DNA of 64,000 nucleotides from Desulfobacterales bacterium. GTDB lineage: Bacteria > Desulfobacterota > Desulfobacteria > Desulfobacterales > C00003060. Within the stretch, counting starts at the first letter, position 1; the number at the start of each line of letters is the position of its first letter. The translations under genes were made by a program, and so were the position numbers. The DNA lies in the NCBI GenBank assembly GCA_030616475.1, contig JAUWXF010000001.1, positions 6,845 through 70,844 on the forward strand. The letters are read 5' to 3'. The notes beneath the pieces are model-generated. The model made no database searches. It was not told the origin of the DNA and saw only the letters and a list, made by a program, of their open reading frames with translations. This document shows positions 1,971 to 63,392 of the stretch, piece by piece.

Positions 1971-2080
1971 GGTGTTGGAGTGTTGGAGTACTGGAGTACT
2001 GGAGTGTTGGGAAAAGACATGAAATCCCGGAGGTTCTTATGCATTTGGTTTCCATTACTCCATTACTCCATCACTCCATT
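1971..2080. repeat. Stutter-hairpin element (GGAGTACTGG arm / CCATTACTCC arm)
   Basis: Left arm GGTGTTGGAGTGTTGGAGTACTGGAGTACTGGAGTGTTGG (1971..2010). Right arm CCATTACTCCATTACTCCATCACTCCATT (2052..2080) is its imperfect reverse complement. Confidence 0.8.
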
Positions 2081-2143
2081 GCCGCCAGGACTCACGGCAA
2101 TGCCAGACAACTAAGAATAACCAACTGTGACCTCAAGGCGCGC

Positions 2144-3586
2144 CTATTCGGTCTCTGCTTTGGTGGTTTTGGTCGGCAGGTGACGCTTTTTCATCAAGGC
2201 AGAAAAGTTGGGCCTCTGCATACCAACCCTCTGGGCTGCATGCGTGATGTTGCCATTGCAAGCCTTGAGGGCCTTGATAAGAAAGGCCTTTTCTATTTGC
2301 CCATAATGTTCTTCCAGGAGTTGCTTTTTAACGGCCTTGAGATCTTCCAGGGTCTCCGGGATTGAATCCCCCTTCAAGAATAGTTTCATTTGTGGCGGTT
2401 CCAACAGATCGAGGCTGTCTAGAATAACGCGATCAGCGCTGTCTAGAATAACGCGATCAGCCATGATCACCAGGCGTTCAATCACATTTTTGAGCTGACG
2501 CACGTTACCCGGCCATTCATGGTTCACCAGAATCTCCAGGGCATCGTGGGAGAATCCGTCGATCTTTTTTCCGGTCTTCCTGGAGAAATGTCTCAAAAAG
2601 TGGTAGGCGAGTTTAGGGATGTCTTTTTTTCTTTCCCGCAGCGGGGGGAGGAAAAGGGGAAATACGTTCAACCGGTAGAAGAGGTCTTCCCTGAAACTTC
2701 CCTCATCCACCATGGCCTTCAGATCCTTATTGGTGGCAGCAATGATCCTCGCATTAGTCTTTTTGAAATGACTTACACCTACAGGTTTGTACTCGTGTAC
2801 CTCCAGCACCCGTAGGAGCTTTCCCTGGATCTCCATGTTCAGGTTCGCCACATCGTCCAGAAAGAGGGTCCCGTCGTGAGCCACCTCAAAGATACCCGCT
2901 TTGTTTTGAATGGCCCCGGTGAAGGCCCCCTTGACGTGACCGAACAGTTCGCTTTCCAGGAGACCTGGAGATAGAGTGCTACAGTCCACAGCCACGAATT
3001 GCCTGGCAGCCCGCTCGCTGTGGACATGAATGGCCCTGGCGAATAGTTCCTTTCCGGTTCCACTGTCTCCATATATGAGCACCGTGCTGTCGGTAGGGGC
3101 AACCTTTCCAATCTGATCGAATATACTGAGGATCTTGGGGGTCTCTCCCACGATGTTGCTAAAGCCGAACCGATCAACGAGCTCTCTTCGGAGGAAAAGG
3201 TTTTCCTCCACCAGCCGTTTTTTCTCCATAGCCCTTTCCACGGCCAGCACGAGTTCATCGTCGGAGAAGGGCTTAGCGATGTAATCGACAGCCCCCGACT
3301 TCATGGCCTCTACCGCATTCTTGACAGTGGAATAACCGGTCATGACAATAACATACACGCCCCGTTTTTCCTTTCGGAGAGTCCGCAGGATCTCCATGCC
3401 GTCCAGATCAGGAAGCTTCATATCCAGCAGGATCAATTCGTATTCACCCTCCCTGATCGCTTCAAGACCGGCTCTGCCGTTCATTCGAAAGTCCACGACC
3501 GAATAGCCTCCCTCCGAAAGCGCCAGTCGGCATCCCTCGCACATGACTTGTTCATCGTCAATGATCAGAATTTTCACGGAATTCAT
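2144..3586 (-). CDS. Sigma54-dependent response regulator (NtrC family: REC + AAA+ + Fis-type HTH)
   Basis: 480-aa ORF with REC (ILIIDDE..LLDMKLPDLDG..KPF), Walker A GDSGTGKE, the GAFTGA loop (GHVKGAFTGA) and a C-terminal HTH ITHAAQRVGMQRPNF. Confidence 0.95.
   Translation of the reverse strand: MNSVKILIIDDEQVMCEGCRLALSEGGYSVVDFRMNGRAGLEAIREGEYELILLDMKLPDLDGMEILRTLRKEKRGVYVIVMTGYSTVKNAVEAMKSGAVDYIAKPFSDDELVLAVERAMEKKRLVEENLFLRRELVDRFGFSNIVGETPKILSIFDQIGKVAPTDSTVLIYGDSGTGKELFARAIHVHSERAARQFVAVDCSTLSPGLLESELFGHVKGAFTGAIQNKAGIFEVAHDGTLFLDDVANLNMEIQGKLLRVLEVHEYKPVGVSHFKKTNARIIAATNKDLKAMVDEGSFREDLFYRLNVFPLFLPPLRERKKDIPKLAYHFLRHFSRKTGKKIDGFSHDALEILVNHEWPGNVRQLKNVIERLVIMADRVILDSADRVILDSLDLLEPPQMKLFLKGDSIPETLEDLKAVKKQLLEEHYGQIEKAFLIKALKACNGNITHAAQRVGMQRPNFSALMKKRHLPTKTTKAETE
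2414..2461 (-). repeat. Perfect 24-nt tandem duplication inside the NtrC-type gene (duplicates ADRVILDS)
   Basis: GCTGTCTAGAATAACGCGATCAGC occurs at 2414..2437 and again at 2438..2461. The protein reads MADRVILDSADRVILDSLDLL. Confidence 0.95.
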
Positions 3587-3603
3587 TTTCGTGACCCTTT
3601 GAT

Positions 3604-4815
3604 TTACTGTCTGAGAGGGATGTCAACGGTAAAGCGGGTTCCATGCCCCGGTTCGCTCCGGACCTGGATATTCCCCTCGTGTTTCTGGACGATTGCATAA
3701 CTCACGGACAGCCCCAGGCCGGTCCCGTTCGTCTTGGTGGAGAAGAAGGGTTCAAAGATTGTGGGCATATCATCTTGTGCGATACCACATCCGGTGTCCT
3801 TAATCTCGATCCTCTGGCTGTCTTGGTCCGAACTCATACGGCTCCGGATGCTGATCACTCCATTTTCTTGAATCGCTTCCACGGCGTTGATCAAAAGGTT
3901 CACAAAAACCTGCTGCAACTGGTTGGGGTCAAGCAGAGTGTCCGGCATCTTGCTATATAAATCCTTCTCCACCTGTATGTGATGGAGGCGAAACTCGTTA
4001 TCCAAAACTCTCACAGCCTTGTTGATAATGTGATTGATGTTGGCCAAAACCACTACTGGCTCCCTATCCCTGGAGAATTCCAAAAGATCCTGGATAATGA
4101 CTTTACACCGTTGGGTCTCGCGAATGATGACGTCCAGGCCTTCTGCAAGTGGCCCCTCATCCGGGACTTTTTTGCGCATATTTGTGCTGAAAAGCAGGAT
4201 ACCACCCAGAGGGTTGTTGATCTCATGAGCAATCCCTGCCGCCATTCGGCACAGGGCTGAAAGCTTTTCAGTATGGGAGGATAGCTGTTGGTATTGGGCC
4301 CGCTGCTCTTCGATCAAGCGGGCCTTATCGATCGCGCAGGCACATTGCTCACCTACGGCCACTACGAAATCGAGTTCCTCGCTGGAAAACTCCCTTGGTT
4401 CCTCGAAACAGACTCGAATGATCCCGATGATATCATCTTTGAGGGTGAGGGGGACATCCAATACCATACGGATCCCTTCTTCCAATGCCTCATCAGGGTA
4501 CATAATACGAGGGTCTGCCAGAATATCATCTATGACAATGACCTTGTTTTCCCGGCATAAATCCGTGATGATTTTATGGCTGAAGACGGGTCCTTTGGCA
4601 AGGTATTTCTCGCTCAATCCATATGCAGCGAACAGTTCCAACTTGTCTGTTGCGAGGTTGAGGATCCGGAGGATGGCGCCTTTAGCGCCGAGGACTTTGG
4701 TGGACTTCCAGACCACCAGCTCCATTACTTCCGTCAAATCCGTGCTGGAATGCACCACTTTGCTGATATCCCGAAAGATAGCGTAATATGTCTTGAAATC
4801 CATCGAAGAGTTCAT
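3604..4815 (-). CDS. Sensor histidine kinase with an N-terminal GAF-like domain
   Basis: 403-aa ORF with H-box AAGIAHEINNPLGG and N/G boxes NLLINAVEA, DTGCGI, GTGLGLS. It ends 18 nt upstream of the NtrC-type gene on the same strand. Confidence 0.9.
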   Translation of the reverse strand: MNSSMDFKTYYAIFRDISKVVHSSTDLTEVMELVVWKSTKVLGAKGAILRILNLATDKLELFAAYGLSEKYLAKGPVFSHKIITDLCRENKVIVIDDILADPRIMYPDEALEEGIRMVLDVPLTLKDDIIGIIRVCFEEPREFSSEELDFVVAVGEQCACAIDKARLIEEQRAQYQQLSSHTEKLSALCRMAAGIAHEINNPLGGILLFSTNMRKKVPDEGPLAEGLDVIIRETQRCKVIIQDLLEFSRDREPVVVLANINHIINKAVRVLDNEFRLHHIQVEKDLYSKMPDTLLDPNQLQQVFVNLLINAVEAIQENGVISIRSRMSSDQDSQRIEIKDTGCGIAQDDMPTIFEPFFSTKTNGTGLGLSVSYAIVQKHEGNIQVRSEPGHGTRFTVDIPLRQ

Positions 4816-4833
4816 GACAAACCTCTTTCAAAA

Positions 4834-4909
4834 CCCTGGCCCAGACCCTGGCCCAGACCGGGTTTTTCTCTCTGTGGCATGCTCCAGCTTCTGTCGCGCC
4901 AGGGCGGGC
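4834..4909 (-). repeat. Family-1 element (GCCCGCCCTGGCGCGACAGAAGCTGGAGCATGCCACAGAGAGAAAAACCCGGTCTGGGCCAGGG), reverse orientation
   Basis: This is the reverse complement of the copies at 45449..45532, 46486..46550 and 53288..53408. Confidence 0.85.
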
Positions 4910-5102
4910 AGGTTTAGGGGGATTTTTATGTTTGCGCAATGCAACTTTGACGGAGCCCTGCCCTTTTTCGGTAGTAGAGTATAGGAAGAAACGGCCTTAT
5001 GTGTCAACGAAAATACAGCCGCCACCGGCAACTACGATCTCGCGCCTTGCATCTGGAGCTTTCTACTTTGCCGTCCATTTTTGGATCTTTTGCGAAGCCG
5101 TC

Positions 5103-5139
5103 AAAAAAGGGGTGCTGGAACACCAAGCACCCCTTTTCC
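5103..5139 (-). terminator. Rho-independent terminator downstream of hdrB-like
   Basis: The minus strand reads GGAAAAGGGGTGCTTGGTGTTCCAGCACCCCTTTTTT: a GC-rich stem followed by a T-run. It is paralogous to the terminator at 27025..27059. Confidence 0.75.
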
Positions 5140-6812: not shown

Positions 6813-7062
6813 GTAGTCTGGGCATCTTTCATTTTCGCCGTAAAGTAGTTTACACCTATTGACCAGTGTTCAGGTTTCAGTGTTCAGGTTTCAGGTCTTG
6901 CTTTTTCAGTTTCTGACACCTGGTGCCTGGTTTCAGGTTTCAGTGTTCAGCTCTTGCGTTTATTCACTCCTGACACCTGACACCTGATTCGATCTCGCAC
7001 ACGATCTCCGGCAAAAAGCGTAAACTACGAAATGAAGGATGCCGTAGTCTGGATGAATCCTC
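6813..7062. repeat. Nested long hairpin between the giant hdrA-like gene and hdrC-like
   Basis: Outer arms are 6813..6853 (GTAGTCTGGGCATCTTTCATTTTCG..TAGTTTAC) and 7030..7062 (GTAAACTACGAAATGAAGGATGCCGTAGTCTGG). The inner part is a TCAGGTGTCAGG / CCTGACACCTGA stutter hairpin (6866..6988). Confidence 0.8.
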
Positions 7063-12155: not shown

Positions 12156-12179
12156 GCTCTCCCTCCCGAGATAATTTTC

Positions 12180-12210
12180 CGTTGCGCAAATTCTACAAGC
12201 TATTTAGGCC
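12180..12210 (-). promoter_or_regulatory. Motif A copy (degenerate) upstream of mvhD
   Basis: CGTTGCGCAAATTCTACAAGCTATTTAGG aligns with the copies at 15766, 16838, 31082 and 63238. Confidence 0.35.
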
Positions 12211-12246
12211 ACAGGTTTCTTGTGCTTTCTTCTCCCGCCTCACACC

Positions 12247-12346
12247 TGGAATAATGGAATGTTGGAATATTGGAATATTGGAAACAAAAGCCGCAATCAG
12301 TTGTTCCCGATGCTACATTCCGCATTCCGCATTCCGCATTCCATTA
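12247..12346. repeat. Stutter-hairpin element (GGAATATTGG arm / CATTCCG arm) at the 3' end of the hdrL-like gene
   Basis: The arms are TGGAATAATGGAATGTTGGAATATTGGAATATTGGAAAC and CATTCCGCATTCCGCATTCCGCATTCCATTA. In the minus (mRNA) sense the mismatches become G-U pairs. Confidence 0.8.
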
Positions 12347-15757: not shown

Positions 15758-15765
15758 TCAACCTC

Positions 15766-15801
15766 ACGTTTCGGAATTTCTACAACCGATTGAGATCATA
15801 G
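15766..15801 (-). promoter_or_regulatory. Motif A copy, 9 nt upstream of the hdrL-like start
   Basis: ACGTTTCGGAATTTCTACAACCGATTGAGATCATAG. The core GTTGTAGAAATTCCGAAAC (minus sense) is a 19-bp imperfect palindrome, GTT-N3-GAA-N-TTC-N3-AAC. Confidence 0.45.
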
Positions 15802-15821
15802 TTTTTCTCTGGTATCTATTT

Positions 15822-15882
15822 ATGCCATCGCCACGCACAGTACACAGCTTTTATGCCAATATTCATGGCAATGGCGGGCAGG
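15822..15882. repeat. Family-6 hairpin (GCCATCGCC ... GGCAATGGCGGGCAGG)
   Basis: Related to CCTGCCCGCCATTGCC...GGCGATGGCAGGCGGG at 45868..45933 and to 56302..56367. Confidence 0.6.
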
Positions 15883-16062
15883 TAAAACCATCACTCTCTC
15901 CGAGGCGTAGGCTCTCCGAGCCGGAGGCCGGTACTCCAATTGGGCCGAAGCCCCTAAGTTCAATTACCACCACCAGAGGTAGTGGGTTGTATTGTTAATC
16001 CTTAAATCCGCCTGAGGCGGACTGGTCTAAGTGAGCTAAAGTGCCTAAAGTCCCTAAAATGC

Positions 16063-16714: not shown

Positions 16715-16802
16715 CTGGTCATTTGGTCATTCGGTATTCGAATTTGTTTGCGGCGTGCGCCTTGAGAAGAGTACGGATTTCGGGTTTCGATACTCGGATT
16801 TT
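16715..16802. repeat. Partial copy of the ~220-bp element (40725..40941, 61989..62206)
   Basis: It shares TGGTCATTTGGTCATT and TTTGCGGCGTGCGCCTTGAGAAGAGTACGGATTTCGG with those elements (reverse-complement match to TTCTCAAGGCGTGAGCCGCAAA). Confidence 0.6.
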
Positions 16803-16837
16803 GCCTGAATATGACTTTTCGTTCAGGCACTAATTGG

Positions 16838-16873
16838 ACGTTTCGGAAATTCTACAACTTATTGAAGTTAAAG
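16838..16873 (-). promoter_or_regulatory. Motif A copy (orphan, no convincing downstream gene)
   Basis: ACGTTTCGGAAATTCTACAACTTATTGAAGTTAAAG. Confidence 0.35.
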
Positions 16874-16905
16874 ATATTTATTCGTGCTATTGCAAGTTCG
16901 ATCAG

Positions 16906-17071
16906 GGACACGAAGTGAAGCTTGCGCTCATAATGGAATGATGGAATATTGGAATTATGTAAAAGAAAAAAAGACTGAAATCCTCTTAAACCCAACATGA
17001 GCGCAAGCTTCACTTCGTGTCCAACATGAGCGCAAGCTTCACTTCGTGTCCAATATTCCAGTATTCCAATT
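16906..17071. repeat. Composite element: a 26-nt perfect inverted repeat with a tandemly duplicated right arm, interleaved with GGAATGATGG/CCAATATTCC arms
   Basis: GGACACGAAGTGAAGCTTGCGCTCAT (16906..16931) has its exact reverse complement at 16997..17022 and again at 17026..17051 (29-nt period). AATGGAATGATGGAATATTGGAATT (16932..16956) faces CAATATTCCAGTATTCCAATT (17051..17071). Confidence 0.85.
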
Positions 17072-17150
17072 GTGAGCGAAGCGAACTAACTTGGGTTATC
17101 AGCCGGGGGTAATGGGGGCCATCCTTGTACAGTTGTTCCATAAGGATTCT

Positions 17151-19547: not shown

Positions 19548-19693
19548 TTTTTCCTCCTTTTATTTTGATGAATTGTTAATTACTTTGGCTCCGCTTCGTC
19601 CGACTTAGGCGGAGTTGAGTGGTTGAGTCGTCGAGTAGTTGAGTGGTATTGCATCTAGCCATCAGGACCTGTTTGTGTTTGTCAACAGAACAT

Positions 19694-23261: not shown

Positions 23262-23486
23262 TCAGGCCTTCTCGAGCAAGGGTTCCATTTCCGGATGACT
23301 CGACCTGTCCACCTTTATTCTTCCTTCCTTGATATATTTTATCATCAGGTCAAGACCGTGTACACGCCGTATTTGTTGAAGAAGTTTCATATCGCAGCTT
23401 CCGAAGCACCTTTGTTTGCAGAAACCGGAAAGAAGATGACAGAGCGTGCTAGAGATATGGGGCCAAATCCGTTGAGGGACGGTCAT
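23262..23486 (-). pseudogene. Possible remnant of a CCG-domain gene
   Basis: MIKYIKEGRIKVDRSS resembles VLKEYLETGRIKVDKSK of the 27092..28438 product. The rest of the ORF has no recognisable motif. Confidence 0.25.
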
Positions 23487-23710
23487 TGGTCATTAGTCAG
23501 ACTTAAGAAGGGTATTAACTCCGGAAGATCCAGCTTAGGTAGTTCAGATATAAGCTTTACTATTCTGCGGAGTTCAGGCATAAGCCTTTTAATTGGAACC
23601 TGTAGACCTAAAATCTTTTTCTTGAGGCCTGTAGAAACATGATGCAATCCTTGGCAAGGTACAACCAATGGCCAGTGACTAATGATCAATGACCAGTGAC
23701 CAATGACTAA
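23481..23710. repeat. Stutter-hairpin element (GGTCATTGGTCATT arm / CAATGACCAGTGACCAATGAC arm)
   Basis: GGTCATTGGTCATTAGTCAG (23481..23500) faces CCAATGGCCAGTGACTAATGATCAATGACCAGTGACCAATGACTAA (23665..23710). Confidence 0.7.
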
Positions 23711-31048: not shown

Positions 31049-31081
31049 TTTTTATCCCTCTTGTTCAACATAGTTTAATGT

Positions 31082-31114
31082 CTCGTAAATTCTACGGCCT
31101 ATTGAAATCATAAC
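31082..31114 (-). promoter_or_regulatory. Motif A copy (degenerate) upstream of 29378..31048
   Basis: CTCGTAAATTCTACGGCCTATTGAAATCATAAC. Confidence 0.3.
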
Positions 31115-31188
31115 TCATCGTTCGCTTAATAAATTCGTACTTAGTACTTAGATTAATTCTTATATGGACCTAAATCTTTATCCCGTTT

Positions 31189-31402
31189 TGGTTTCAGGTT
31201 TCAGGGCACATGTAGGTTTCAGGTGTCAGTGTTCAGGTGTCAGGAAAGTAAAACGGCAGTGCTGAAACCTGATTGTCCCTGACACCTTTATATGTCCTGA
31301 CACCTGACACCTGACACCTCAATCCTCGGGTACGGGCCAGCCTTGAGGGAGGGGTTCATCATTGTCACTGCGTTCTCCCCTGAAACCCGAAACCTGAAAC
31401 CA
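31189..31402. repeat. Stutter-hairpin element of the TCAGGTGTCAGG / CCTGACACCTGA family
   Basis: GGTTTCAGGTTTCAGGG..GGTTTCAGGTGTCAGTGTTCAGGTGTCAGG faces CCTGACACCTGACACCTGACACC and CCTGAAACCCGAAACCTGAAACC. The same family occurs at 6866..6988 and 37533..37604. Confidence 0.8.
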
Positions 31403-31497
31403 GAGGAATATATATATCTTTTTATAGATTCTCAAAATTAACAAAAGTCTATCCCTATTAAGCGAATGATAAGATTCCATTAATCCATTAATTCCAA

Positions 31498-32280
31498 TTA
31501 GGGCGAAGCCCCTAACTTGTATAAAGGTGTATGATCCTTTACACTCTCCATCTCCACAAAGCCACGCCGCTTCAAACCGAGTATGTATTTCAAGGTCTCC
31601 GGAGGAGGAATTTCAAGCTCCTTCGCCAACTGCTTGACTGAGGCCGATTTGTTCTGCAAGGCTGCCAGAATGGAATGGGTGGCCATCTCGTCAATAACAA
31701 TGCCGCTTAAGGTGCGGTTTATCTCGTGCTCGGTAAAAACCTCATGATACTTGTTGCCTGTATCAACGAAGACAGGCTTTTTCCCAACGACCCACCGCAA
31801 TTTGGGCCCTGCAAGGGCCGTTTTGGCAATTTCAAGGTTCTCCTTGAGCTTTGGCAAGGGGACCTTGTCAGCCTCGCCTCCTAGTGGGCCGAGTTCTCTT
31901 ATCTCTGTGGAAAAATCGGTGACATGTTTCACAAAAAGCTCACTCTCCGCAGAAGAGAGGTTGCGAAATGACAACCGTCCCGGATTCATCCCTGCATAAG
32001 CGAGCATTTCCCCGGTCATGTTTATCTTGTGCCTGGCATTAAAATTCCCGCTCACATAATGACATTCGCCAAAAAGACAGCCGAGCACCAACAACCCATC
32101 AAGACCGTGAATAAAGGCATCAGCCATAATGACAGGGTCCATCCTGCCCGTGCACATAAGACGAATGACCCTGATATCCGTTGTGTATTGCATCCTGGAC
32201 ACGCCAGCGAGGTCACCTGCCGAGTAACCTCACCACGTGCAGCAAAAGGTCAATATCTTAGGGGTAAAATCCTCTGCCAT
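31498..32280 (-). CDS. MvhD-like domain (in-frame TGA, predicted Sec, at 32230..32232) fused to a C-terminal winged-helix-like domain
   Basis: ATG at 32278-32280 lies 8 nt after AGGAGG. My translation is [36 protein letters not shown].., continuing in frame into track ORF 31498..32202. The C-terminus ASVKQLAKELEIPPPETLKYILGLKRRGFVEM looks like a wHTH. Confidence 0.75.
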
Positions 32281-32296: not shown

Positions 32297-32321
32297 TATA
32301 AAATCGCTCCGCGATTTTATA
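32297..32321. repeat. Family-5 mini-hairpin (TATAAAATCGC-TCC-GCGATTTTATA) directly 3' of the 32324 stop
   Basis: A perfect 11-bp stem. The same module occurs at 35785..35809, 46631..46655 and 53107..53129. Confidence 0.8.
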
Positions 32322-32323
32322 TG

Positions 32324-34000: not shown

Positions 34001-34020
34001 TTTGATTCTCCGTGTGTTAG

Positions 34021-34132
34021 TTATTCGTTATTGGTTATTGGTTATTTGATTGTCGATTGTTGATTGTCGACTTTCGATTTGTTTTATTCAATCGTCAATC
34101 GTCAATCGTCAATCCAAAAATCATCAATCCAA
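34021..34132. repeat. Stutter-hairpin element (GATTGTCGATTG arm / CAATCGTCAATC arm)
   Basis: TTGGTTATTTGATTGTCGATTGTTGATTGTCGAC faces CAATCGTCAATCGTCAATCGTCAATCC. The same family occurs at 50900..50997, 59407..59618 and 62934..63008. Confidence 0.8.
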
Positions 34133-34174
34133 AGGTTCACGGTCTCATTCCGCATTCCGCACTCCGCATTCGAT

Positions 34175-36936: not shown

Positions 36937-37018
36937 TCTTTAGCCCCCATTGGTATTCTCTGGGCAATCGATTCATCTCATCCACCCAATACTCCATCAC
37001 TCCATTACTCCAATTCAA

Positions 37019-37438
37019 CTAAGCGGCTAGCCGCAGCGAAGACATCCCCAGATCCTTGATCTTCTGGGTAAAAGAGGTGACGACTTCGGCAAAACGGCCC
37101 CCTTCGGCAGACGAAACCCACTCCAGGGCCAGGCGCTCATTGTCGATGCCCAGCAGGGCCAGCAATTGACGCGTCATCTCAATCATCAGTGTTGCTTTCT
37201 TGTTACCTTCCAGGTAACGACAGTCGCCGATGTGTCAGCCACTCACCAGTACCCCATCGGCGCCCAGTTGAAACGCCTTCAGAATGAAATTAGGGTCGAC
37301 CCGGCCAGAGCACATCAGCCGGATCACTCGAATGTTGGGGGGATATTGCATGCGGCTGACTCCAGCCAGATCTGCCGCGCCATAGGCGCACCAGTTGCAG
37401 CAAAAAGCAATAATTGTTGGCTCGTACTCTGCACTCAT
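37019..37438 (-). CDS. mvhD: MvhD-like protein with an in-frame TGA (predicted Sec) at 37235..37237
   Basis: Track ORF 37235..37438 ends ..GVLVSG. My continuation is [74 protein letters not shown], with the stop at 37019. The hairpin GUUACCUGGAAGGUAAC (37202..37218) lies 16 nt 3' of the UGA. Confidence 0.85.
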
Positions 37439-37532: not shown

Positions 37533-37604
37533 AGGTGTCAGGCTTCGGGTTTCAGGTGTCAGGATTGAGAAACTTAAAGAGCTGAAACCTGAACACTGAC
37601 ACTT
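37533..37604. repeat. Stutter-hairpin element of the TCAGGTGTCAGG family
   Basis: GGTGTCAGGCTTCGGGTTTCAGGTGTCAGG faces CTGAAACCTGAACACTGACAC. Confidence 0.75.
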
Positions 37605-40695: not shown

Positions 40696-40724
40696 GACAA
40701 TCCCTCAATATCGCTTTTTAAAAC

Positions 40725-40941
40725 AAATCCGAAATCCGTATATCGTACTGTTCTCAAGGCGTGAGCCGCAAATCCGAAACAAATCCGACACGAAGTGAAG
40801 CCTGCGCTCAATTCAAATGTCTAAATGTTCAAAACTCTATTTACGCTGAGTGCTCTCCTTGAGCTATTCGGGTTTGTTTTGAATTTTGTATTTTGGTCAT
40901 TTGATATTGTTTCGAATTTCGTGCTTCGAATTTCGAATTTT
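40725..40941. repeat. Roughly 220-bp composite repeat element, copy 1
   Basis: AAATCCGAAATCCGTATATCGTACTGTTCTCAAGGCGTGAGCCGCAAATCCGAAACAAATCCGACACGAAGTGAAGCCTGCGCTCAATTCAAAT ... TTTTGGTCATTTGATATTGTTTCGAATTTCGTGCTTCGAATTTCG. It is largely alignable with 61989..62206, and its ends are imperfect inverted repeats. Confidence 0.85.
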
Positions 40942-41013
40942 CCCTGTTGTTTCTGTGAAATTTAATTTCTGAGAATCTTTAGCATATTGGAACGTTATTT
41001 TGGAGTCCTCATA

Positions 41014-41775: not shown

Positions 41776-41844
41776 TTCTCTCCTGCTGTACCCGTTAGGA
41801 GTTTCATTTACTCCAACACTCCATTACTCCAATACTCCATCGCA

Positions 41845-45448: not shown

Positions 45449-45532
45449 GCCCGCCCTGCCCGCCCTGGCGCGACAGAAGCTGGAGCATGCCACAGAGAGA
45501 AAAACCCGGTCTGGGCCAGGGTCTGGGCTAGG
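45449..45532 (+). repeat. Family-1 element
   Basis: GCCCGCCCTGCCCGCCCTGGCGCGACAGAAGCTGGAGCATGCCACAGAGAGAAAAACCCGGTCTGGGCCAGGGTCTGGGCTAGG. Confidence 0.85.
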
Positions 45533-45867
45533 GGCGCTACCTCCTTAAATTAATCTACTAAGCCTATAATGCCGGTCTGGGCCAGGGAATGCCGCTCCGA
45601 CATAACACCTGTTGATAGGATGAAAATAGACCTACTTTTTCCTTGACACCTCCCTTGATATTTGCTAATGCCTTGCGCAATTTTTTGCTATCTGGAGGCC
45701 GTGAACGCCGACAATAGTTCTTGGTGTCGTTAGGCGCTTAAGAGTAAAGTTCGTGTTCTTACTGGCAGAAAATTATAAAAAACAATCACGCCTTTTCTCA
45801 AGGCGAAAAGCCGCAAAGCACGAAATAGAACAACTTTCAGACTTTCGTGTCTTCGTCCTTTCGTGCT

Positions 45868-46460: not shown

Positions 46461-46485
46461 CGGGCACCTGGGATAATGGAATGTT

Positions 46486-46550
46486 GGCCCGCCCTGGCGC
46501 GACATGAGAATAATAAGCGGTGCCATGTAAAAACCCGGTCTGGGCCAGGG
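46486..46550 (+). repeat. Family-1 element (variant loop)
   Basis: GGCCCGCCCTGGCGCGACATGAGAATAATAAGCGGTGCCATGTAAAAACCCGGTCTGGGCCAGGG. Confidence 0.8.
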
Positions 46551-46614
46551 AATACTGGGCACGAAGTGAAGCTGCGCGCTATATTGGGTTAAGAGGAACT
46601 TTCTTAATTTTCGA

Positions 46615-46655
46615 GCGGCGAAGCCGCGTTACATAAAATCGCGAAGCGATTTTAT
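46615..46655. repeat. Family-5 double mini-hairpin upstream of rnfC
   Basis: GCGGCGAAGCCGCGTTACATAAAATCGCGAAGCGATTTTAT, with both loops reading GAA. Confidence 0.8.
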
Positions 46656-46668
46656 AAAGGGTTAAGCT

Positions 46669-50899: not shown

Positions 50900-50997
50900 G
50901 GATTGAATATTGACGATTGATGATTGACGATTGACAATTGAATATTTGAGGATCGAGGCTTGTTTTTACAATCTTCAATCGAAAATCGTCAATTGAT
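50900..50997. repeat. Stutter-hairpin element (GATTGACGATTG family) between rnfA and rnfB
   Basis: GGATTGAATATTGACGATTGATGATTGACGATTGACAATTGAAT faces CAATCTTCAATCGAAAATCGTCAATTGATTGG. Confidence 0.75.
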
Positions 50998-51019
50998 TGG
51001 TCCGGTTTAGGAGGAAGAA

Positions 51020-53217: not shown

Positions 53218-53287
53218 ACTTTACATGGTATAATCATATATAAAGAATTAGGTTAGTTCAGCCCATGTTGTCATTTCGAACGAATGT

Positions 53288-53408
53288 GCCCGCCCTGGCG
53301 CGACAGAAGCCGGAGAATGCCCAGCAGAGAAAAACCCGGTCTGGGCCAGGGAAGCTGGAGCATGCCACAGAGAGAAAAACCCGGTCTGGGCCAGGGTCTG
53401 GGCCAGGG
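53288..53408 (+). repeat. Family-1 element with an internally duplicated core (1.5 copies)
   Basis: GCCCGCCCTGGCGCGACAGAAGCCGGAGAATGCCCAGCAGAGAAAAACCCGGTCTGGGCCAGGG is followed by AAGCTGGAGCATGCCACAGAGAGAAAAACCCGGTCTGGGCCAGGGTCTGGGCCAGGG. Confidence 0.85.
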
Positions 53409-53563
53409 AGAAATCTTGATCGGAAAGTGACAGAAAAAGCAATGGGTGCTGAACTATTACGAATATAGGTTCACGAATTATTTCAATTGATCCAGAGAGG
53501 AGGTGGTACCAACCAGGTTTACTGGTAGTAGCCATATAACAACCCTATGAAAGGAGGTTCAAT

Positions 53564-57978: not shown

Positions 57979-57986
57979 ACTATTCC

Positions 57987-58328
57987 TTACTCAGCCTCGA
58001 TATGGGTTATTTGAAGCTCTTTTCCCGAGATGATTTCACTGGCAATCCCCCCACATTCGGGACAGAGAAAAAAGAAGCTATCCACTTCAAAGTCTGTGTT
58101 GCAATTATGACATCGTCCCCTGGCAGGTACAACCTCTATGTCAAGTCCGGCCCCTTCAGCTACAGTCCTCTCTGAGATCACCTGAAAAGAAAAGGTCAGG
58201 GCCTCAGGAACAATGGCGGAAAGGGTCCCTATCCGGACACACACTCGGGTAACCCGGGAGACCCCGTGTTTTTTGCTTTCATCTTCGACGATCTTGAGCA
58301 GGCTTTGGGCAATGGAAAGTTCATGCAT
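57987..58328 (-). CDS. hypA: Hydrogenase nickel-insertion protein HypA
   Basis: The internal start MHELSIAQSLL.. gives 113 aa with CHNC..CPEC zinc motifs. The longer track ORF (to 58532) would overlap hypD. Confidence 0.85.
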   Translation of the reverse strand: MHELSIAQSLLKIVEDESKKHGVSRVTRVCVRIGTLSAIVPEALTFSFQVISERTVAEGAGLDIEVVPARGRCHNCNTDFEVDSFFFLCPECGGIASEIISGKELQITHIEAE

Positions 58329-59403: not shown

Positions 59404-59406
59404 ATT

Positions 59407-59618
59407 CGATTGTTGATTGTTGATTGTTGATTGTTGATTGTCGATCGTTTTTTCCTCTGTGCCGTCTTCCTTGTTGTAATGAAAATTGATGATAGCTCAT
59501 GCGCTTCATTGAAGAGAGGAAGAACCCTTTTTCTTTCCATCAATTCTTCATCCATAATCCAGACAATCACCAATCACCAATCACCAATCATCAATCGTCA
59601 ATCACCAATCATCAATCC
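59407..59618. repeat. Stutter-hairpin element between hypF and hypD (GATTGTTGATTG x5 arm / CAATCACCAATC arm)
   Basis: CGATTGTTGATTGTTGATTGTTGATTGTTGATTGTCGATCG (59407..59447) faces CAATCACCAATCACCAATCACCAATCATCAATCGTCAATCACCAATCATCAATCC (59564..59618). The right arm runs into the hypF stop codon. Confidence 0.8.
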
Positions 59619-61921
59619 AAAGATTTGGCAATAGCGGCCGCCACAGCCGCCTGTCCCAAAGAGATCCCTCCGTCGTTGCACGGAACAACACAATGGGTGA
59701 AGACCTGAAAATGTTTTTCTTCCAGGGCCTTTTTCAGGCCGGCTAATAAGATCGCGTTTTGAAAGACCCCGCCGCTTAAGACCACATGATCCAGATCGGT
59801 CTCTTGACGCAGAACTGTGCAAAGGTCGGAAAACAATCGGATCAGGGTCATGTGAAATTTGCTGCTGATATCAGACACCTCAAGGCCATTTTCCATATCC
59901 CTTACCACACCGCGTACAATCGGGCCAACCAGCACCTGGTACGACTCTTTTCCCAGTTCCCATTCATAGTCATAAGATTCCTCTGTCTCTTCGCGTATTG
60001 CCATCTCCAGTTCCATGGCGGCCTGTCCTTCGTAAGCCACCTTCTTTCTGATACCGAGTATCGCAGCGATTCCGTCAAAAAGACGGCCGAGGCTGGAGGT
60101 TTGAGGAGCGTTGACCTTTTTGGAGATCATGTGCATGATAATTTTGATCTTTTCTTTCTCAAGACCCTGAAAGAGAGGAAGCTTCAGGCCGAGGAACCCT
60201 TCTCCAAAGGCATCGTAAAGGTAACTGATGGCCATTCGCCACGGCTCTCTAATTGCTGCTGCGCCACCCGGCATTGGGAGATACGCAAGATGGGCCGCAC
60301 GCGTAAATTGATGTGCTTCAGCGATCAGCACCTCTCCTCCCCAGATGCGACCGTCTGTTCCATAGCCTGTTCCATCAAAAGAAAGTCCCAGGACCGGCCC
60401 GTCCAACCTATTTTCCACCATACAGCTTACGATGTGTGCATGGTGATGTTGCACGGCGATATTTTTTATGCCTTTTTGTTCTTCTGCGTAGCGGGTGCTG
60501 AGATAATCAGGGTGAAGGTCGCAGGCCACGATCTGGGGATCAATGTCAAGAATTCGTTTCATATGTCGTACCGTCATCTCAAAAAACCGATATGTCTCAA
60601 GGTTTTCCAGATCCCCTATGTGCTGGCTGAGAAAGGCATTCTTTCCCTTGGTGAGGCAGACCGTATTTTTCAGTTCCGCGCCGCACGCAAGTATCTGCGG
60701 ACCCTTTTCTTTAAGGAAAATAGGGATCGGGATGTAGCCTCTTGATCGGCGAATAAATCGGGTTGCTCGGCCCACCCTCCTGACGATGGAATCGTCGCTG
60801 CGCAGATAGATGTCCCGGTTGTGGACCAGGAAATAATCGGCAATGGCGCCAAGGCGTTCAAATGCCTCCTCATTATCAATAGCGATCGGTTCCTCTCTTA
60901 TGTTTCCGCTGGTCATGACCAGTGCTGTGAAATCATAGCTCAAAAGGAGATAATGAAGCGGGGTATATGGAAGCATGACCCCGAAGTTTATATTGTGCGG
61001 CGAGATTTCATGGGAAAGCGGATTCGAATTCCTTTTTTTTACCAGCACGATTGGACGCTGTGGCGAGGTTAGAAGAACCTCTTCGTCCGGTTCGATGTAG
61101 GCATATCCACGGACCCGGTCAATGTCGTAAGACATCAGGGCGAGCGGTTTTTCTTCCCGGTGTTTCCTTTGCCTTAGACGGACGACCGCATCACTATTTT
61201 CGGCATCCACGGCCAGGTGGAATCCACCCAAACCTTTTATTGCAACAATATGGCCTTTTTTCAGAAGCTCTGCTGTCCTTTTGATGGGGTCTCGGGATAG
61301 AACATGAGTGCGACCGTTGTCATAAAGGGCGACGTTTGGGCCACAGACCGCACAGGCGTTCGGTTGGGTATGAAACCTGCGATCTGCCGGATCATCATAT
61401 TCTTTCTGGCATGGCTGACACATTGTGAAACGTTTCATGGAGGTGTTTGGCCGGTCGTAGGGGATATCGTCTATGATGGTATAGCGAGGGCCGCAGTTGG
61501 TACAGTTGATGAAAGGATATTGATAACGGCGGTCTGTTGGATCAAACAGCTCCCGAAGACAATCATCGCATATAGCCGTATCCGGTGAAATCAGTGCCCA
61601 TCGAGAAGATTGGCGTTTACTCGGCTCTATGGTAAATTCCGTATAGTTCCTGGCCGGTTCATAAGAAGTTGAAACTTCGGTAATGTGGGCAAGAGGCGGG
61701 CTCTTTTCGGCAAGATCCCGGATAAAGGCCTGAAGCTTTTCTTCGCTACCCTCAATATGGATGGTTACTCCGGAAGAGGTATTGGAAACCTCTCCTTTAA
61801 GCCCGTATTGGTGTGCCAGTTGATAGACAAAAGGGCGAAACCCAACCCCCTGCACGATACCATTTACCGCCAGTCTTCGTCCAACTATAGGTTCTTCCGG
61901 GGTGACACGGTATTTCATCAT
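59612..61921 (-). CDS. hypF: Carbamoyltransferase HypF
   Basis: 769-aa ORF with an acylphosphatase-like N-terminus, zinc-finger motifs (CDDCLREL..CTNCGPRY, CQPCQKEY..CAVCGP) and a YrdC/Kae1-like remainder. Confidence 0.95.
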   Translation of the reverse strand: MMKYRVTPEEPIVGRRLAVNGIVQGVGFRPFVYQLAHQYGLKGEVSNTSSGVTIHIEGSEEKLQAFIRDLAEKSPPLAHITEVSTSYEPARNYTEFTIEPSKRQSSRWALISPDTAICDDCLRELFDPTDRRYQYPFINCTNCGPRYTIIDDIPYDRPNTSMKRFTMCQPCQKEYDDPADRRFHTQPNACAVCGPNVALYDNGRTHVLSRDPIKRTAELLKKGHIVAIKGLGGFHLAVDAENSDAVVRLRQRKHREEKPLALMSYDIDRVRGYAYIEPDEEVLLTSPQRPIVLVKKRNSNPLSHEISPHNINFGVMLPYTPLHYLLLSYDFTALVMTSGNIREEPIAIDNEEAFERLGAIADYFLVHNRDIYLRSDDSIVRRVGRATRFIRRSRGYIPIPIFLKEKGPQILACGAELKNTVCLTKGKNAFLSQHIGDLENLETYRFFEMTVRHMKRILDIDPQIVACDLHPDYLSTRYAEEQKGIKNIAVQHHHAHIVSCMVENRLDGPVLGLSFDGTGYGTDGRIWGGEVLIAEAHQFTRAAHLAYLPMPGGAAAIREPWRMAISYLYDAFGEGFLGLKLPLFQGLEKEKIKIIMHMISKKVNAPQTSSLGRLFDGIAAILGIRKKVAYEGQAAMELEMAIREETEESYDYEWELGKESYQVLVGPIVRGVVRDMENGLEVSDISSKFHMTLIRLFSDLCTVLRQETDLDHVVLSGGVFQNAILLAGLKKALEEKHFQVFTHCVVPCNDGGISLGQAAVAAAIAKSLD

Positions 61922-61988
61922 TTGTAACGGTTCCCTATGCTATGATATGTACTACAATCTTTCTAAGTTTGTGGAACCGCTGTCTTAA

Positions 61989-62206
61989 ACCCGAAATCCG
62001 AATATCGTACTGTTCTCAAGGCGTGAGCCGCAAATGCGAAACAAATCCGACACGAAGTGATGCCTGCGCTCAATTCAAATTTCAAATTTTCAAAACGTTT
62101 ACTCTGTGTGCTATAGTTTTCGTGATTTGTATTTGTTTAATGTCTTGGGTTTGATATTTTGGTCATTTGATATTGTTTCGAATTTCGTGCTTCGAATTTC
62201 GTATTT
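61989..62206. repeat. Roughly 220-bp composite repeat element, copy 2
   Basis: Aligns with 40725..40941: CCGAAATCCGAATATCGTACTGTTCTCAAGGCGTGAGCCGCAAATGCGAAACAAATCCGACACGAAGTGATGCCTGCGCTCAATTCAAAT ... TTTTGGTCATTTGATATTGTTTCGAATTTCGTGCTTCGAATTTCG. Confidence 0.85.
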
Positions 62207-62271
62207 TCATGGTTGCGTCATTGTGGCTCACAAATAACTCTCTCGGACATCACAGATTAGCGATCCATGTC

Positions 62272-62919
62272 TCATGTCTTAATATGGTCTGAAACCCATT
62301 GGAACCAGTTATGAAGTCCCTCTTTTGTCTGGCAGGAGATTTCAAAGATCGCAATGTTGGGGTTGATCTTTAAGACCGTCTCGCGAATCTTGTTCATATC
62401 ACAATTCACATAGGGCAGAAGATCGATCTTGTTAATCAGGAGGACAGATGCCTCGTGAAACATCAGGGGATATTTTTCCGGTTTGTCATCCCCTTCGGCG
62501 ACGCTCAATATCATCACCTTGTAATTCTCACCCAGATCAAATTCTGCAGGGCAGACTAGGTTTCCCACATTTTCGATAAACAGGAGATCTGTTTCTTCAA
62601 TGTTGATAGCGGGAAGGGCAGCTTTTATCATGTTTGCGTCCAGGTGGCACGCACCGTCCGTATTGATCTGTACGGCGACGGCTCCTGCCCGGAGGATTCT
62701 TTCAGCGTCTGCCGAAGACTGGATGTCTCCTTCAATGACTCCAATACGGATTGTTTCCTTCAGATGTCCGATGGTATGTTCCAGCAATGCGGTCTTCCCG
62801 GCCCCAGGCGCACTCGTAAGGTTGAGGACCAGAAGGTTGTTTTTCCGAAACAACTCCCTGTGTTCGTTCGCAATACGATCGTTGACCTCAAGAATGTCGC
62901 GTACAACAGGTATTTTCAA
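62272..62919 (-). CDS. hypB: Hydrogenase nickel-incorporation GTPase HypB
   Basis: 215-aa ORF with P-loop SAPGAGKT, ENVGNLVCP and NKIDL motifs. Confidence 0.9.
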   Translation of the reverse strand: MKIPVVRDILEVNDRIANEHRELFRKNNLLVLNLTSAPGAGKTALLEHTIGHLKETIRIGVIEGDIQSSADAERILRAGAVAVQINTDGACHLDANMIKAALPAINIEETDLLFIENVGNLVCPAEFDLGENYKVMILSVAEGDDKPEKYPLMFHEASVLLINKIDLLPYVNCDMNKIRETVLKINPNIAIFEISCQTKEGLHNWFQWVSDHIKT

Positions 62920-62933
62920 AGTAAAACCCCCTT

Positions 62934-63008
62934 CAATTGACTATTGACTATTGACGATTGAAGATTGATTTCTGATTCCCTTTCGATTGTCACTTGTCAA
63001 TAGTCAAT
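62934..63008. repeat. Stutter-hairpin element (GATTGAC family) between hypC and hypB
   Basis: CAATTGACTATTGACTATTGACGATTGAAGATTGAT faces GATTGTCACTTGTCAATAGTCAATATTCAATT. Confidence 0.75.
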
Positions 63009-63015
63009 ATTCAAT

Positions 63016-63234
63016 TCATTGTGCTGCTGCCAATTCTCGAAGGAGCCTAAGAGATTCTTGCGCTTCTTCCGGATCTACCCTGTGTATGGCAAACCCTGCA
63101 TGAACAATGACGTAATCTCCCAGAACCACATCAGTAACGAGCATAAGAGAGGCAGAACGTGTTACACCGCCAACCTTGATTGTGGCCATATCACCATCGA
63201 TTTTCGTTACTTTTGCAGGTATGGCAAGACACAT
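63016..63234 (-). CDS. hypC: Hydrogenase assembly chaperone HypC
   Basis: 72-aa ORF starting MCLAIPAKV.., typical of HypC/HupF. Confidence 0.9.
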   Translation of the reverse strand: MCLAIPAKVTKIDGDMATIKVGGVTRSASLMLVTDVVLGDYVIVHAGFAIHRVDPEEAQESLRLLRELAAAQ

Positions 63235-63237
63235 TAG

Positions 63238-63273
63238 ACGTTTCGGAATTTCTACAACTTATTGAACTTATAG
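63238..63273 (-). promoter_or_regulatory. Motif A copy, 3 nt upstream of the hypC ATG
   Basis: ACGTTTCGGAATTTCTACAACTTATTGAACTTATAG. No Shine-Dalgarno sequence lies between the motif and the ATG. Confidence 0.45.
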
Positions 63274-63305
63274 CACATCATTAACCTGGCTGCAGTCTCA
63301 AGAAA

Positions 63306-63392
63306 GGAATGATGGAATGATGTAGAAGTCAAAAAGACCAAAACCCTCTTAAACCCATTATTCCATCATTCCATCATTCCATTATTCCAATT
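63306..63392. repeat. Stutter-hairpin element (GGAATGATGG arm / CCATCATTCC arm) with a conserved loop
   Basis: The loop AAAAAGACCAAAACCCTCTTAAACCCA resembles the loop AAAAAGACTGAAATCCTCTTAAACCCA of the 16932..17000 element. Confidence 0.8.

Follow-up and report, generated by a model that had tools for sequence, protein, structure and literature searches.

How does a bacterial genome come to carry, in the spacers between its genes, units of a few nucleotides that are repeated head to tail and then repeated once more as their reverse complements? The question is raised by a 64-kb stretch of DNA from a Desulfobacterales bacterium (here called the window; all coordinates are window positions), of which 16% is intergenic. 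An original prediction, made from the sequence of this stretch, saw in its stuttered hairpins a mosaic of recombining modules and a hint of function at the RNA level. We find the core of that observation solid, several of its details wrong and its interpretation partly supported. The explanation we favour, with a probability of about 60%, is that the mosaic represents the DNA-level debris and the ongoing activity of several very small element families that encode no protein. Such elements would gather in the places where they are tolerated, namely the short spacers between genes, including those within operons. Two processes would build the mosaic: small palindromic or foldback elements would insert into gene junctions and then into each other, and 7-nt or 8-nt units would be gained and lost locally inside each hairpin arm.

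Arrays were called with Tandem Repeats Finder (TRF) and with a detector of our own, which covers periods of 6-10 nt, was applied in a uniform version to count arrays of period 7 and 8, and was set against first-order Markov simulations (n=50). TRF reports more than 40 arrays of period 7-8 in the window, and our detector finds 18 such runs (13 of period 7 and 5 of period 8) compared with none in the 50 simulations; the other periods yield 0-1 runs with the same detector. The stutter hairpin arrays are thus real and stand where they had been placed, and all six unit types named for them are present. Of 20 arrays with periods of 6-10 nt called by our detector, 17 are intergenic, and two of the three 'coding' ones fall in spurious open reading frames (ORFs). 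That nearly every spacer above 60 nt contains such repeats is too strong a statement: by our own count about 17 of 29 real spacers of that length hold an array, and several of the supposed spacers are coding sequence (hypA and the N-termini of probable selenoprotein genes). For comparison we assembled 932 kb of related Desulfobacterales loci, window included, whose contigs are labelled L001 and so on. Over periods of 3-20 nt, this set contains 153 arrays of 7 nt and 44 of 8 nt, then 22 of 14 nt and 17 of 16 nt, which are the doubled periods, and 12 of 9 nt, with at most four at every other period. The sole public contig with the exact HypF of the window, the short and independent Logan assembly L001, is 100% identical to positions 59416-62030, hairpins included; the repeats are therefore not an assembly artefact.

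About 13 arrays in the window pair with a nearby reverse-complement array into long imperfect hairpins (1972-2082, 6864-6987, 12247-12346, 16906-17072, 23481-23707, 31189-31402, 34020-34171, 40717-40945, 50901-51001, 59407-59617, 61978-62206, 62935-63016 and 63300-63389), and single-armed arrays occur at 19614, 36977 and 41804. Across the 932 kb, an inverted partner lies no more than 400 nt away for 43% of the arrays, compared with 7% of control segments. Each unit consists of a conserved 5-nt core (GGAAT/GGAGT, GATTG, CAGGT, GGTCA or CGAAA) and two to three variable bases; at least eight unrelated cores are present in the window and dozens in the related loci. Because units are near-identical within one arm and the partner arm deviates at one unit position, the stems are 6-7 bp helices interrupted every 7 or 8 bp by a mismatch, mostly a transversion such as T:T. 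The idea that rounds of insertion and excision left tandem target-site duplications, and thereby the stutter, was considered and rejected as the arms are inverted and not direct. The arrays are not clustered regularly interspaced short palindromic repeats (CRISPR) either, since direct repeats at regular intervals around unique spacers are missing: units of 7-8 nt adjoin one another head to tail, with their reverse complement coming after them. Nor are they repetitive extragenic palindromic (REP) elements of a single consensus, given the many unrelated unit families and the lack of any GTAG-type REP in the window; both exclusions had been anticipated. Elements abut or include the stop codons at 12344, 31498, 37019, 41845 and 59612, as had been noticed before, and in two cases the element itself supplies the stop codon.

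Evidence for insertion comes from a recurring 24-nt module, GACACGAAGTGAAGCYTGCGCTCA, which contains a discrete 21-nt insert, CACGAAGTGAAGCYTGCGCTC. The module is found exactly at 16907(+), 16998(-), 17027(-) and 40787(+) and with one mismatch at 62049(+), where none is expected by chance; the window holds five copies of the 21-mer and one variant. Most of the copies listed in the original prediction were recovered, namely 16907, 40787, the imperfect one at 62049 and the inverted one at 17027, but the last is really half of a tandem pair whose other member, 16998(-), had been overlooked, and the sequence at 46558 is degenerate (GCACGAAGTGAAGCTGCGCGCTA), with more than three mismatches. In the same way the shared loop CCTCTTAAACCCA is exact at 16982 and 63345, but its inverted counterpart at 46585 differs by an indel.

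Two contigs of one metagenome-assembled genome (MAG), L002 and L028, carry the same element of about 150 nt with and without exactly 21 nt. The empty site in L028 reads GGTACGA^AACCCAAC and the filled site in L002 reads GGTACGA[CACGAAGTGAAGCCTGCGCTC]AACCCAAC. The two are identical for the 32 nt that precede the indel and the 33 nt that follow it, the upstream flank diverging only further out, and the position of the indel is unambiguous, with no flanking microhomology and no target duplication. In all of the more than 18 octamer contexts the 21-mer sits in one phase, GGA^ATNNT, and the flanks restore one full GGAATNNT unit only if exactly 21 nt are removed; the same rule applied to CCGAAAT arrays gives CCGA^AAT. 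The two phases together define the target as GA^A. The comparisons hence show insertion of CACGAAGTGAAGCYTGCGCTC at GA^A, with exact ends and without target duplication. Other interruptions of octamer arrays are limited to a 62-nt element and an inverted-repeat element of about 70 nt, both at G^GAAT, so that two further elements with terminal inverted repeats are shown to enter GGAAT octamers. The 62-nt element has five copies in the window with constant termini, CCTGGCGCGAC and GTCTGGGCCAGG, that form terminal inverted repeats, and with differing flanks. That modules recombine between loci, as had been proposed, is borne out and explained as nested insertion of discrete small elements.

The 24-nt module was searched by exact match in the one-genome-per-species GTDB contigs, where our own calculation puts the chance expectation at about 0.01 exact matches in 596 Gb. 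The search returned 41 exact-match stretches, spread over no fewer than 12 different MAGs, almost all of which bear a Desulfobacterales label or that of a relative; the matches come almost entirely from Desulfobacterales and Candidatus Desulfaltia MAGs. As the copies were gathered by exact match, there is almost no variation among them. The 21-mer lies in GGAAT octamer arrays (18 loci and the window), in the loops of GTAG REPs (15 loci), in CCGAAAT arrays (4 loci and the window) and at four other intergenic or coding sites, including one in frame within an ORF. Its Y position would fall in the loop of a putative AGC-YTGC-GCT mini-hairpin. Self-nesting of the 21-mer was not seen, only a 29-nt tandem duplication (16992-17053), and one copy in L020 is broken by a different insert. 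No match to the 21-mer was found in IMG/VR viral contigs, which leaves no evidence for a phage as its vector. Five contigs with the 21-mer and its host elements (L003, L005, L006, L019 and L020) have been assigned to one MAG labelled Gammaproteobacteria and one labelled ANME-1 (Methanophagaceae). The few matches of this sort are near-identical to contigs from Desulfobacterales, as L006 is to L010 from a Desulfobacterales MAG, and these assignments therefore look like binning errors, which we consider the likely explanation; the repeats could serve as lineage markers.

Related hydrogenase maturation (hyp) operons allow the same junctions to be compared. A HypD scan of metagenome contigs gave 80 syntenic hyp operons with 64-88% HypD identity, the closest relatives reaching 77-88%. 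At the hypB-hypF junction, L046 and L047 have an overlapping ATGA stop/start and the window has 350 nt of CCGAAAT element, while L044 has an unrelated 265-nt insert with a flanking 9-nt duplication, GAAATGATG. The hypC-hypB junction measures 20 nt in L046; the window and L047 share an ATTGAMT hairpin there that differs in unit number and is shorter in L047, and L044 holds an unrelated 400-nt CAGGTGT/GAAACCT stutter element. At hypF-hypD, one GATTGNT hairpin is shared by the window, L044 and L046, with differing unit numbers and loop inserts, and only two units are left in L047. After hypA, L043 carries a 130-nt element that is bounded by 22-bp terminal inverted repeats and accompanied by a GTAG duplication; all others compared lack this element. 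Elements of 130-400 nt are seen filling junctions that are empty in relatives, and orthologous hairpins are seen to vary in unit number; the comparisons thus show insertion into gene junctions, gain and loss of units in place, and nesting. The region upstream of an HdrA-like gene in the Desulfobacterales MAG contig L016, which has 81% nucleotide identity to an Hdr gene of the window, was discarded as an orthologous comparison because the gene arrangements differ.

The same junctions also bear on an alternative in which the hairpins are functional RNA in polycistronic mRNAs, acting as barriers to 3' exonucleases, as RNase sites or in stop-start translational coupling, and being selected while their sequence turns over. 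The hairpins do lie between co-oriented genes of hyp, rnf and hdr operons and start at or within stop codons. Among 60 operons at a greater distance, the hypF-hypD junction does not exceed 31 nt or else is taken up by stutter hairpins whose units are many and unrelated, some of them 16-nt units each with a GCGAAGC mini-hairpin. Some hairpin stands there in about three quarters of these 60 lineages; often its base coincides with the stop codon and it finishes 5-25 nt short of the start codon. For the short tandemly repeated repetitive (STRR) hairpins of cyanobacteria, located between hupS and hupL, the same proposal has been made (PMC2670836). On the other side, close relatives manage with overlapping ATGA or 20-nt junctions, which makes the hairpins dispensable.

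The strand on which the stems pair also speaks against function as RNA. Arm alignments of 17 candidate regions contain 50 mismatches, of which 31 are transversions and hence mismatched on both strands; the remainder are G:T-type, 14 on the plus strand and 5 on the minus strand, and most neighbouring genes lie on the minus strand, so that G:T-type mismatches are commoner on the antisense strand. Minimum free energy (MFE) folding shows no preference for the sense strand: among 12 hairpins of known gene direction the mRNA sense is more stable in six and the antisense in six. The original prediction had derived its hint of RNA-level function from the element at 12247-12346, in which the mismatches were thought to become G-U pairs only in the mRNA sense, and had named a count of mismatches in both senses as a check. 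In a gapped alignment of this element the two transition mismatches are T:G on the plus strand, which is antisense to the gene, and the MFE folds have four G-U pairs on the plus and three on the minus strand. Over the 17 regions, the strand signature in the hairpin mismatches is neutral, and with the MFE results this leads us to drop the argument from RNA sense. A mirror test of unit variants in the two arms, with unit order permuted, gave no signal at its low power (mean z 0.04, for the 9 of 11 array pairs with defined z), which argues against both nested self-insertion and pairing-driven selection as the source of the arrays. No stutter hairpin was called as a U-tract terminator in 12100-17200 or 59300-63600, and Rfam returned no match at the gathering threshold or at E<=1. 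We regard functional RNA as an unlikely explanation of the mosaic; a secondary role in mRNA stability or translational coupling may exist, an idea kept alive by the occupation of the hypF-hypD junction.

If the hairpins are products of DNA-level activity, what moves the elements? Our preferred guess would be a trans-acting enzyme for single-stranded DNA, of the Y1 or REP-associated tyrosine transposase (RAYT) type, that recognises GAA-looped mini-hairpins; an RNA-mediated route, as proposed for the small dispersed repeats (SDRs) of cyanobacteria, would be equally open. Y1-type activity is favoured because a relative possesses a RAYT together with GTAG REPs that host the 21-mer, and because GAA mini-hairpins are concentrated in the spacers. 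The relative is Candidatus Desulfaltia bathyphila, whose contig L030 encodes a protein scoring 94 bits against the NCBIfam model REP_Tyr_transpos (cutoff 80), flanked by GTAGGTTGGGTTGAG REPs; the loops of REPs of this family contain the 21-nt insert. Mini-hairpins with a GAA loop are characteristic of stable structures in single-stranded DNA. The window has 13 of them compared with 7.9 by chance, a total that is not above chance; only their placement is unusual, nine of the 13 lying in the spacers, that is, in 16% of the sequence.

The same observations could be taken further, to a REP/REPIN (REP doublet forming hairpins)-RAYT system in which one domesticated Y1 transposase, or a few of them, with genes in other parts of the genome would act on all hairpins as REP-like substrates. 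The search for such an enzyme that had been recommended bears on the window only indirectly, through the RAYT and GTAG REPs of L030; the window itself has neither a copy of the GTAG REP (GTAGGTTGGGTT) nor a RAYT, as judged by tblastn with the L030 RAYT and by Pfam on the 38 window ORFs; the latter also gave no transposase, integrase or reverse transcriptase. Unlike REPs, the stutter hairpins have no common head and belong to more than eight unrelated unit families, and the L030 RAYT covers only the first 80 of 146 profile positions and may be defective. We consider it quite improbable that the whole system is of this kind.

Within the arms, replication slippage would drive the change in unit number, favoured by the ability of repeat arms to pair in several registers, and imperfect periodic stems would survive, long perfect palindromes being unstable. 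The preference for periods of 7 and 8 nt is not predicted by ordinary slippage. Its sharpness hints at more than a generic process and can be counted in favour of a reading in which the unit arrays are binding sites for sequence-specific RNA- or DNA-binding regulators, as suggested for TAACTGA heptamers (PMC4679880). Single-arm arrays exist, and some arrays stop a few nucleotides short of a start codon that lacks a Shine-Dalgarno sequence, as in CAATCAACAATCGAAT-ATG at hypD. No single binding protein could serve the at least eight unrelated cores of the window and the dozens in related loci, however; the arrays point in either direction, the greater part of each would be hidden in a stem, and unit number varies freely between orthologs. 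Regulator binding as the basis of the arrays is, in our estimate, very unlikely.

The period preference is one of several points that weigh against small mobile elements as the source of the mosaic. With no transposase in the window and no recurrent protein beside the module copies (ORF clustering in 41 loci), the mobilising activity is something we purely infer. All copies of the 21-mer in REP context share the same flanks and a C variant; much of its copy number thus goes back to the amplification of host elements with the insert already inside. Hitch-hiking of this sort may account for the spread of most module copies, and independent insertions of the 21-mer may number only about four to six. 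Target duplications are clear for some inserts only (9 nt in L044 and the 4-nt GTAG in L043), with one of possibly 6-7 nt at the hypC-hypB insert of the window. Finally, the frequent occupation of hypF-hypD could equally mean selection for a hairpin at that junction.

The genes of the window belong to anaerobic energy metabolism. They include several HdrA-like genes, MvhD/FlpD, heterodisulfide-reductase paralogs with CCG domains, the Rnf complex, sigma-54 two-component regulators and a hypC-hypB-hypF-hypD-hypA-hypE operon. Among the elements between them, the GGAAT octamer family is an oriented one with a fixed 3' terminus, (ATTCCANN)n-ATTCCAATTG-[GAA-loop mini-hairpin]-CTAAGTT, in which the GAA loop is constant and the stem varies between copies (TGAGC..GCGAAC versus GGGC..GCCC). 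Its other side is usually formed by a leader-type motif of about 40 nt.

This leader-type motif, which in gene sense reads ..TTCAATAAGTTGTAGAAATTCCGAAACGT, occurs at 12174-12214, 15761-15801, 16833-16873, 31073-31113 and 63233-63273 and also in L009, L031, L032 and L033. It always adjoins a GGAAT-octamer cassette, and its end lies 2-25 nt upstream of the start codon in MvhD, two HdrA-like genes and hypC (2 nt at hypC). The TAGAAT within it could be a -10 box, which would leave a nearly leaderless mRNA; a sigma-70 promoter scan of two element-rich regions did not call the motif. It might serve hydrogenase and Hdr genes as a portable promoter/leader module or as the binding site of a regulator.

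From the start of the window, the first stutter hairpin (H1, 1972..2082, plus strand) consists of a 5' arm of (GTGTTGGA/GTACTGGA)x5 at 1972-2010 and a 3' arm of (TCCATTAC)x4 at 2051-2082, joined by 25 Watson-Crick pairs with three periodic T:T-type mismatches, and lies just 3' of the stop codon (2144) of a minus-strand sigma-54 activator. A 62-nt element that resembles a miniature inverted-repeat transposable element (MITE), CCCGCCCTGGCGCGAC...CCGGTCTGGGCCAGG, occupies 4847-4908 with a 12-nt terminal stutter at 4833-4859 (whole feature 4833..4913, minus strand). H2 (6864..6987, plus) combines CAGGT(T/G)T heptamer arrays with a complementary CCTGACA array between two minus-strand Hdr-type genes. 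The feature at 12174..12346 (plus) begins with the leader-type motif and continues into H3, where (TGGAATNT)x4.6 of period 8 pairs with (CATTCCG)x3.9 of period 7 and the last unit ends with the stop codon of the 12344..15757 gene. At 15761..15960 (plus), the leader-type motif precedes a fragment of a CCTGCCCGCCATTGCCA element (15866-15883) and a remnant of the octamer-family 3' end, CTCCAATTG-GGCCGAAGCCC-CTAAGTTC (15930-15960). An inverted copy of the GGTCATT / CGAAAT family, the same as at 40717-40945, lies at 16716..16800 (minus).

The composite H5 (16833..17097, plus) joins a leader-type motif, a GGAATNNT octamer hairpin and three 21-nt inserts at 16909-16929(+), 16999-17019(-) and 17028-17048(-), of which the last two make up the 29-nt tandem duplication, and it closes with the octamer-family terminus CCAATTG-TGAGCGAAGCGAAC-TAACTTGG. 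A single-arm GTTGAGTG array (x4.2) without inverted partner follows at 19614..19647 (plus). In H7 (23481..23707, plus) a GGTCATT array at 23481-23499 faces the complement ACCAATG/TGACCAA at 23664-23707, the complementary arms of 19 nt (23481-23499 and 23676-23694) being 176 nt apart. The feature at 31073..31520 (plus) leads from its leader-type motif into the nested hairpin H8 (31189-31402), with outer arms GGTTTCA/GAAACC and inner arms AGGTGTC/CCTGACA, and then into the octamer-family 3' end TTCCAATTA-GGGCGAAGCCCC-TAACTTG (31476-31520), which provides the stop codon of the 31498..32202 gene. A hairpin module of the form AAAATCGC-loop-GCGATTTT has four copies, at 32297..32322, 35773-35809, 46633-46656 and 53107-53143. 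H9 (34020..34171, plus), made of GTTATTG, GATTGTC / TCAATCG and CATTCCG arrays, fills a 174-nt spacer between two minus-strand genes. H10 (36977..37024, plus) is a single-arm ACTCCATN octamer array whose terminal motif, CCAATTCAACTAAG, contains the stop codon of an MvhD-like gene (37019), and a CAGGT-family hairpin, GTGTCAGGCTTCGGGTTTCAG / CTGAAACCTGAACACTGACAC, stands at 37535..37602 (plus).

About 20 nt upstream of an HdrA start (40695) lies H11, a MITE-like element of some 230 nt (40717..40945, plus) with CCGAAAT arrays, a GGCGTGAGCC hairpin, the 21-nt insert at 40789-40809 and TTTCGAA arrays. H12 (41804..41843, plus), a single-arm TACTCCAA octamer array, abuts the stop codon at 41845. A further 62-nt MITE-like element with its 12-nt terminal stutter is found at 45459-45520 (whole feature 45457..45533, plus). 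The composite at 46473..46656 (plus) contains an octamer array broken by a 62-nt element (46488-49), the inverted loop motif, the degenerate 21-mer variant at about 46558-46582 and GCGAAGC-type mini-hairpins at 46617 and 46640. H13 (50901..51001, plus) is a GATTGAC heptamer hairpin between rnfA and an rnfB-like gene, and two 62-nt MITE-like elements form a tandem pair with a 45-nt period at 53287..53409 (plus). In the hyp operon, the (GATTGTT)x6 / (CAATCAC)x7.7 hairpin H14 (59407..59617, plus) fills the hypF-hypD junction and has the hypF stop codon TGA in its last unit. The hypB-hypF junction is filled by H15 (61978..62206, plus), the second copy of the CCGAAAT/TTTCGAA MITE-like element, whose 21-nt insert at 62051-62071 has one mismatch. 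The hypC-hypB junction holds the ATTGACT/GTCAATA heptamer hairpin H16 (62935..63016, plus). The last feature (63233..63410, plus) runs from a leader-type motif through the GGAATGAT/CCATCATT octamer hairpin H17 to CCAATTG...CTAAGTTCC.

Some observations concern the genes themselves. The HdrA-like gene at 37672-40695(-) and the MvhD-like gene at 37019-37438(-) have an in-frame TGA at classical selenocysteine positions (..GVLVSG*HIGDCRY..) and probably encode selenoproteins; the minus-strand gene from 41845 to about 45090 probably likewise has an in-frame TGA and encodes one. Mechanical ORF lists split genes with such TGA codons, so part of their coding sequence looks like spacer. An apparent 342-nt spacer between hypD and hypE (57979-58320) is the hypA gene, which is cut down to a 65-nt remnant in L045 and L047. 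At 731-1609, a 462-nt tandem duplication (1.9 copies, 87% identity) lies, by eye, in a putative minus-strand gene region of response-regulator type. Paralogous gene sets with 72-82% nucleotide identity, consisting of HdrA-like genes and pairs of histidine kinase and sigma-54 activator, are found at 5-630 and 15039-15664, at 17181-17480 and 21383-21682, and at 37.9-40.7 kb and 42.1-45.1 kb, and seem to indicate repeated segmental duplication of Hdr/Mvh modules. Gene orientation and GC skew both flip at about 45.3-46.7 kb, with minus-strand genes before and plus-strand genes after, and the 1.3-kb gap at this place is crowded with elements of 62 nt and of about 70 nt, an octamer array and mini-hairpins.

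How do these repeats relate to known systems? Foldback (FB) transposons of Drosophila have long inverted arms of short subrepeats, are of kilobase scale and are associated with a transposase. The hairpins of the window share with them the long inverted arms of short tandem subrepeats whose number varies between copies, but FB elements are eukaryotic, far larger and accompanied by their transposase, whereas the arms described here measure 20-55 nt. MITEs inserted into operons are also known, such as Chunjie in Geobacter uraniireducens and Nezha in cyanobacteria. The likeness lies in small size, terminal inverted repeats, the absence of an ORF, presence or absence between relatives, operon junctions that stay unbroken and, for some, target duplications. 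In contrast to MITEs, the inverted repeats here are made of tandem subunits, and the 21-nt insert has neither inverted repeats nor a target duplication; a related autonomous insertion sequence was found neither in the window nor in the 41 module loci, whole genomes not having been searched. With REP elements, bacterial interspersed mosaic elements (BIMEs) and REPIN-RAYT systems, the window shares intergenic imperfect palindromes, BIME-like mosaics and hairpins as landing sites (PMC3116915, PMC3733652), but its hairpins have no common consensus or GTAG/CGTC head, their arms are tandem arrays and no RAYT is at hand in the window. TAACTGA heptamer repeats are found directly ahead of start codons in Beggiatoaceae, cyanobacteria and Bacteroidetes (PMC4679880). 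They too form intergenic heptamer arrays of 2-6 copies that often end before a start codon without Shine-Dalgarno sequence, and they have a patchy phylogeny (PMC4679880); there, however, one unit is almost always direct and in one orientation, and here many units mostly form inverted arm pairs. Each of these systems shares features with the Desulfobacterales repeats, yet each fails a defining one.

STRR heptamers of filamentous cyanobacteria were reportedly described by Mazel et al. in 1990. They resemble the window arrays, as far as the sequences tell, in being tandem 7-bp intergenic units that can form hairpins between genes of one putative operon, hydrogenase clusters included. The arrays described here differ in belonging to Thermodesulfobacteriota, in having many more unit families and a second period of 8 nt, in arms with periodic mismatches and in an octamer family with fixed terminal motifs. 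The GGTCATT unit of H7 (23481-23499 / 23664-23707) is a rotation of TTGGTCA, which we take to be STRR2, and AACTGTTG at 1687-1702 contains the complement of CAACAGT, presumably STRR3; these likenesses could be chance or the trace of a shared origin. A literature query with the STRR unit sequences returned nothing relevant.

A second point of comparison are the SDRs, of which Elhai et al. are said to have described SDR1-8 in 2008 from Nostoc punctiforme and relatives, with lengths of 21-27 nt. They reportedly have a secondary structure conserved through compensatory changes and lie embedded in tandem heptamer arrays and mini-transposons, SDR1 and SDR4 nesting in themselves and SDR5 sitting in HIP1. 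If these reports are taken as given, the 21-mer resembles the SDRs in its length within the 21-27 range, its embedding in heptamer or octamer arrays and mini-transposons, its nested composites, its specific short target (compare SDR5 in HIP1) and the lack of an encoded protein. It differs in being unrelated in sequence, in its Desulfobacterales MAG hosts and in showing no self-nesting; if it is of the SDR kind, it is an independent occurrence.

In cyanobacteria, STRR heptamer arrays form hairpins between the operon genes hupS and hupL, within hydrogenase gene clusters (PMC2670836), and a later paper reports no SDR outside Nostocaceae (PMC5861425). Our literature searches found no description of such repeats in Desulfobacterales. 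The same syndrome now appears in an unrelated and environmentally abundant order of sulfate reducers, with practical consequences, as the elements inflate operon spacers, supply stop codons, break assemblies and mislead binning. To our knowledge, no mechanism or function has been established either for the Nostoc-type heptamer hairpins (1990) or for the smallest mobile elements of 21-27 nt (2008). Here a clean pair of filled and empty sites settles the length of the element as 21 nt and its target as GA^A, and a second independent system offers a way to look for the enzyme through co-occurrence and to follow repeat dynamics in metagenomes. We tentatively put forward a wider idea, which may well prove wrong: some Desulfobacterales would harbour active ultra-small mobile DNA that works by the same mechanism as cyanobacterial SDRs and STRRs, with the 21-nt insert entering at GA^A, stutter hairpins as landing pads, and an enzyme, shared or exchanged between the lineages, that moves the mini-elements and makes the 7/8-nt arrays. 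If this is true, comparing the gene content of both lineages could identify the SDR/STRR machinery. By analogy, the Desulfobacterales repeats stand closest to the cyanobacterial STRR hairpins together with the SDRs, which they closely resemble, and would thus represent the same kind of repeat in a new phylum.

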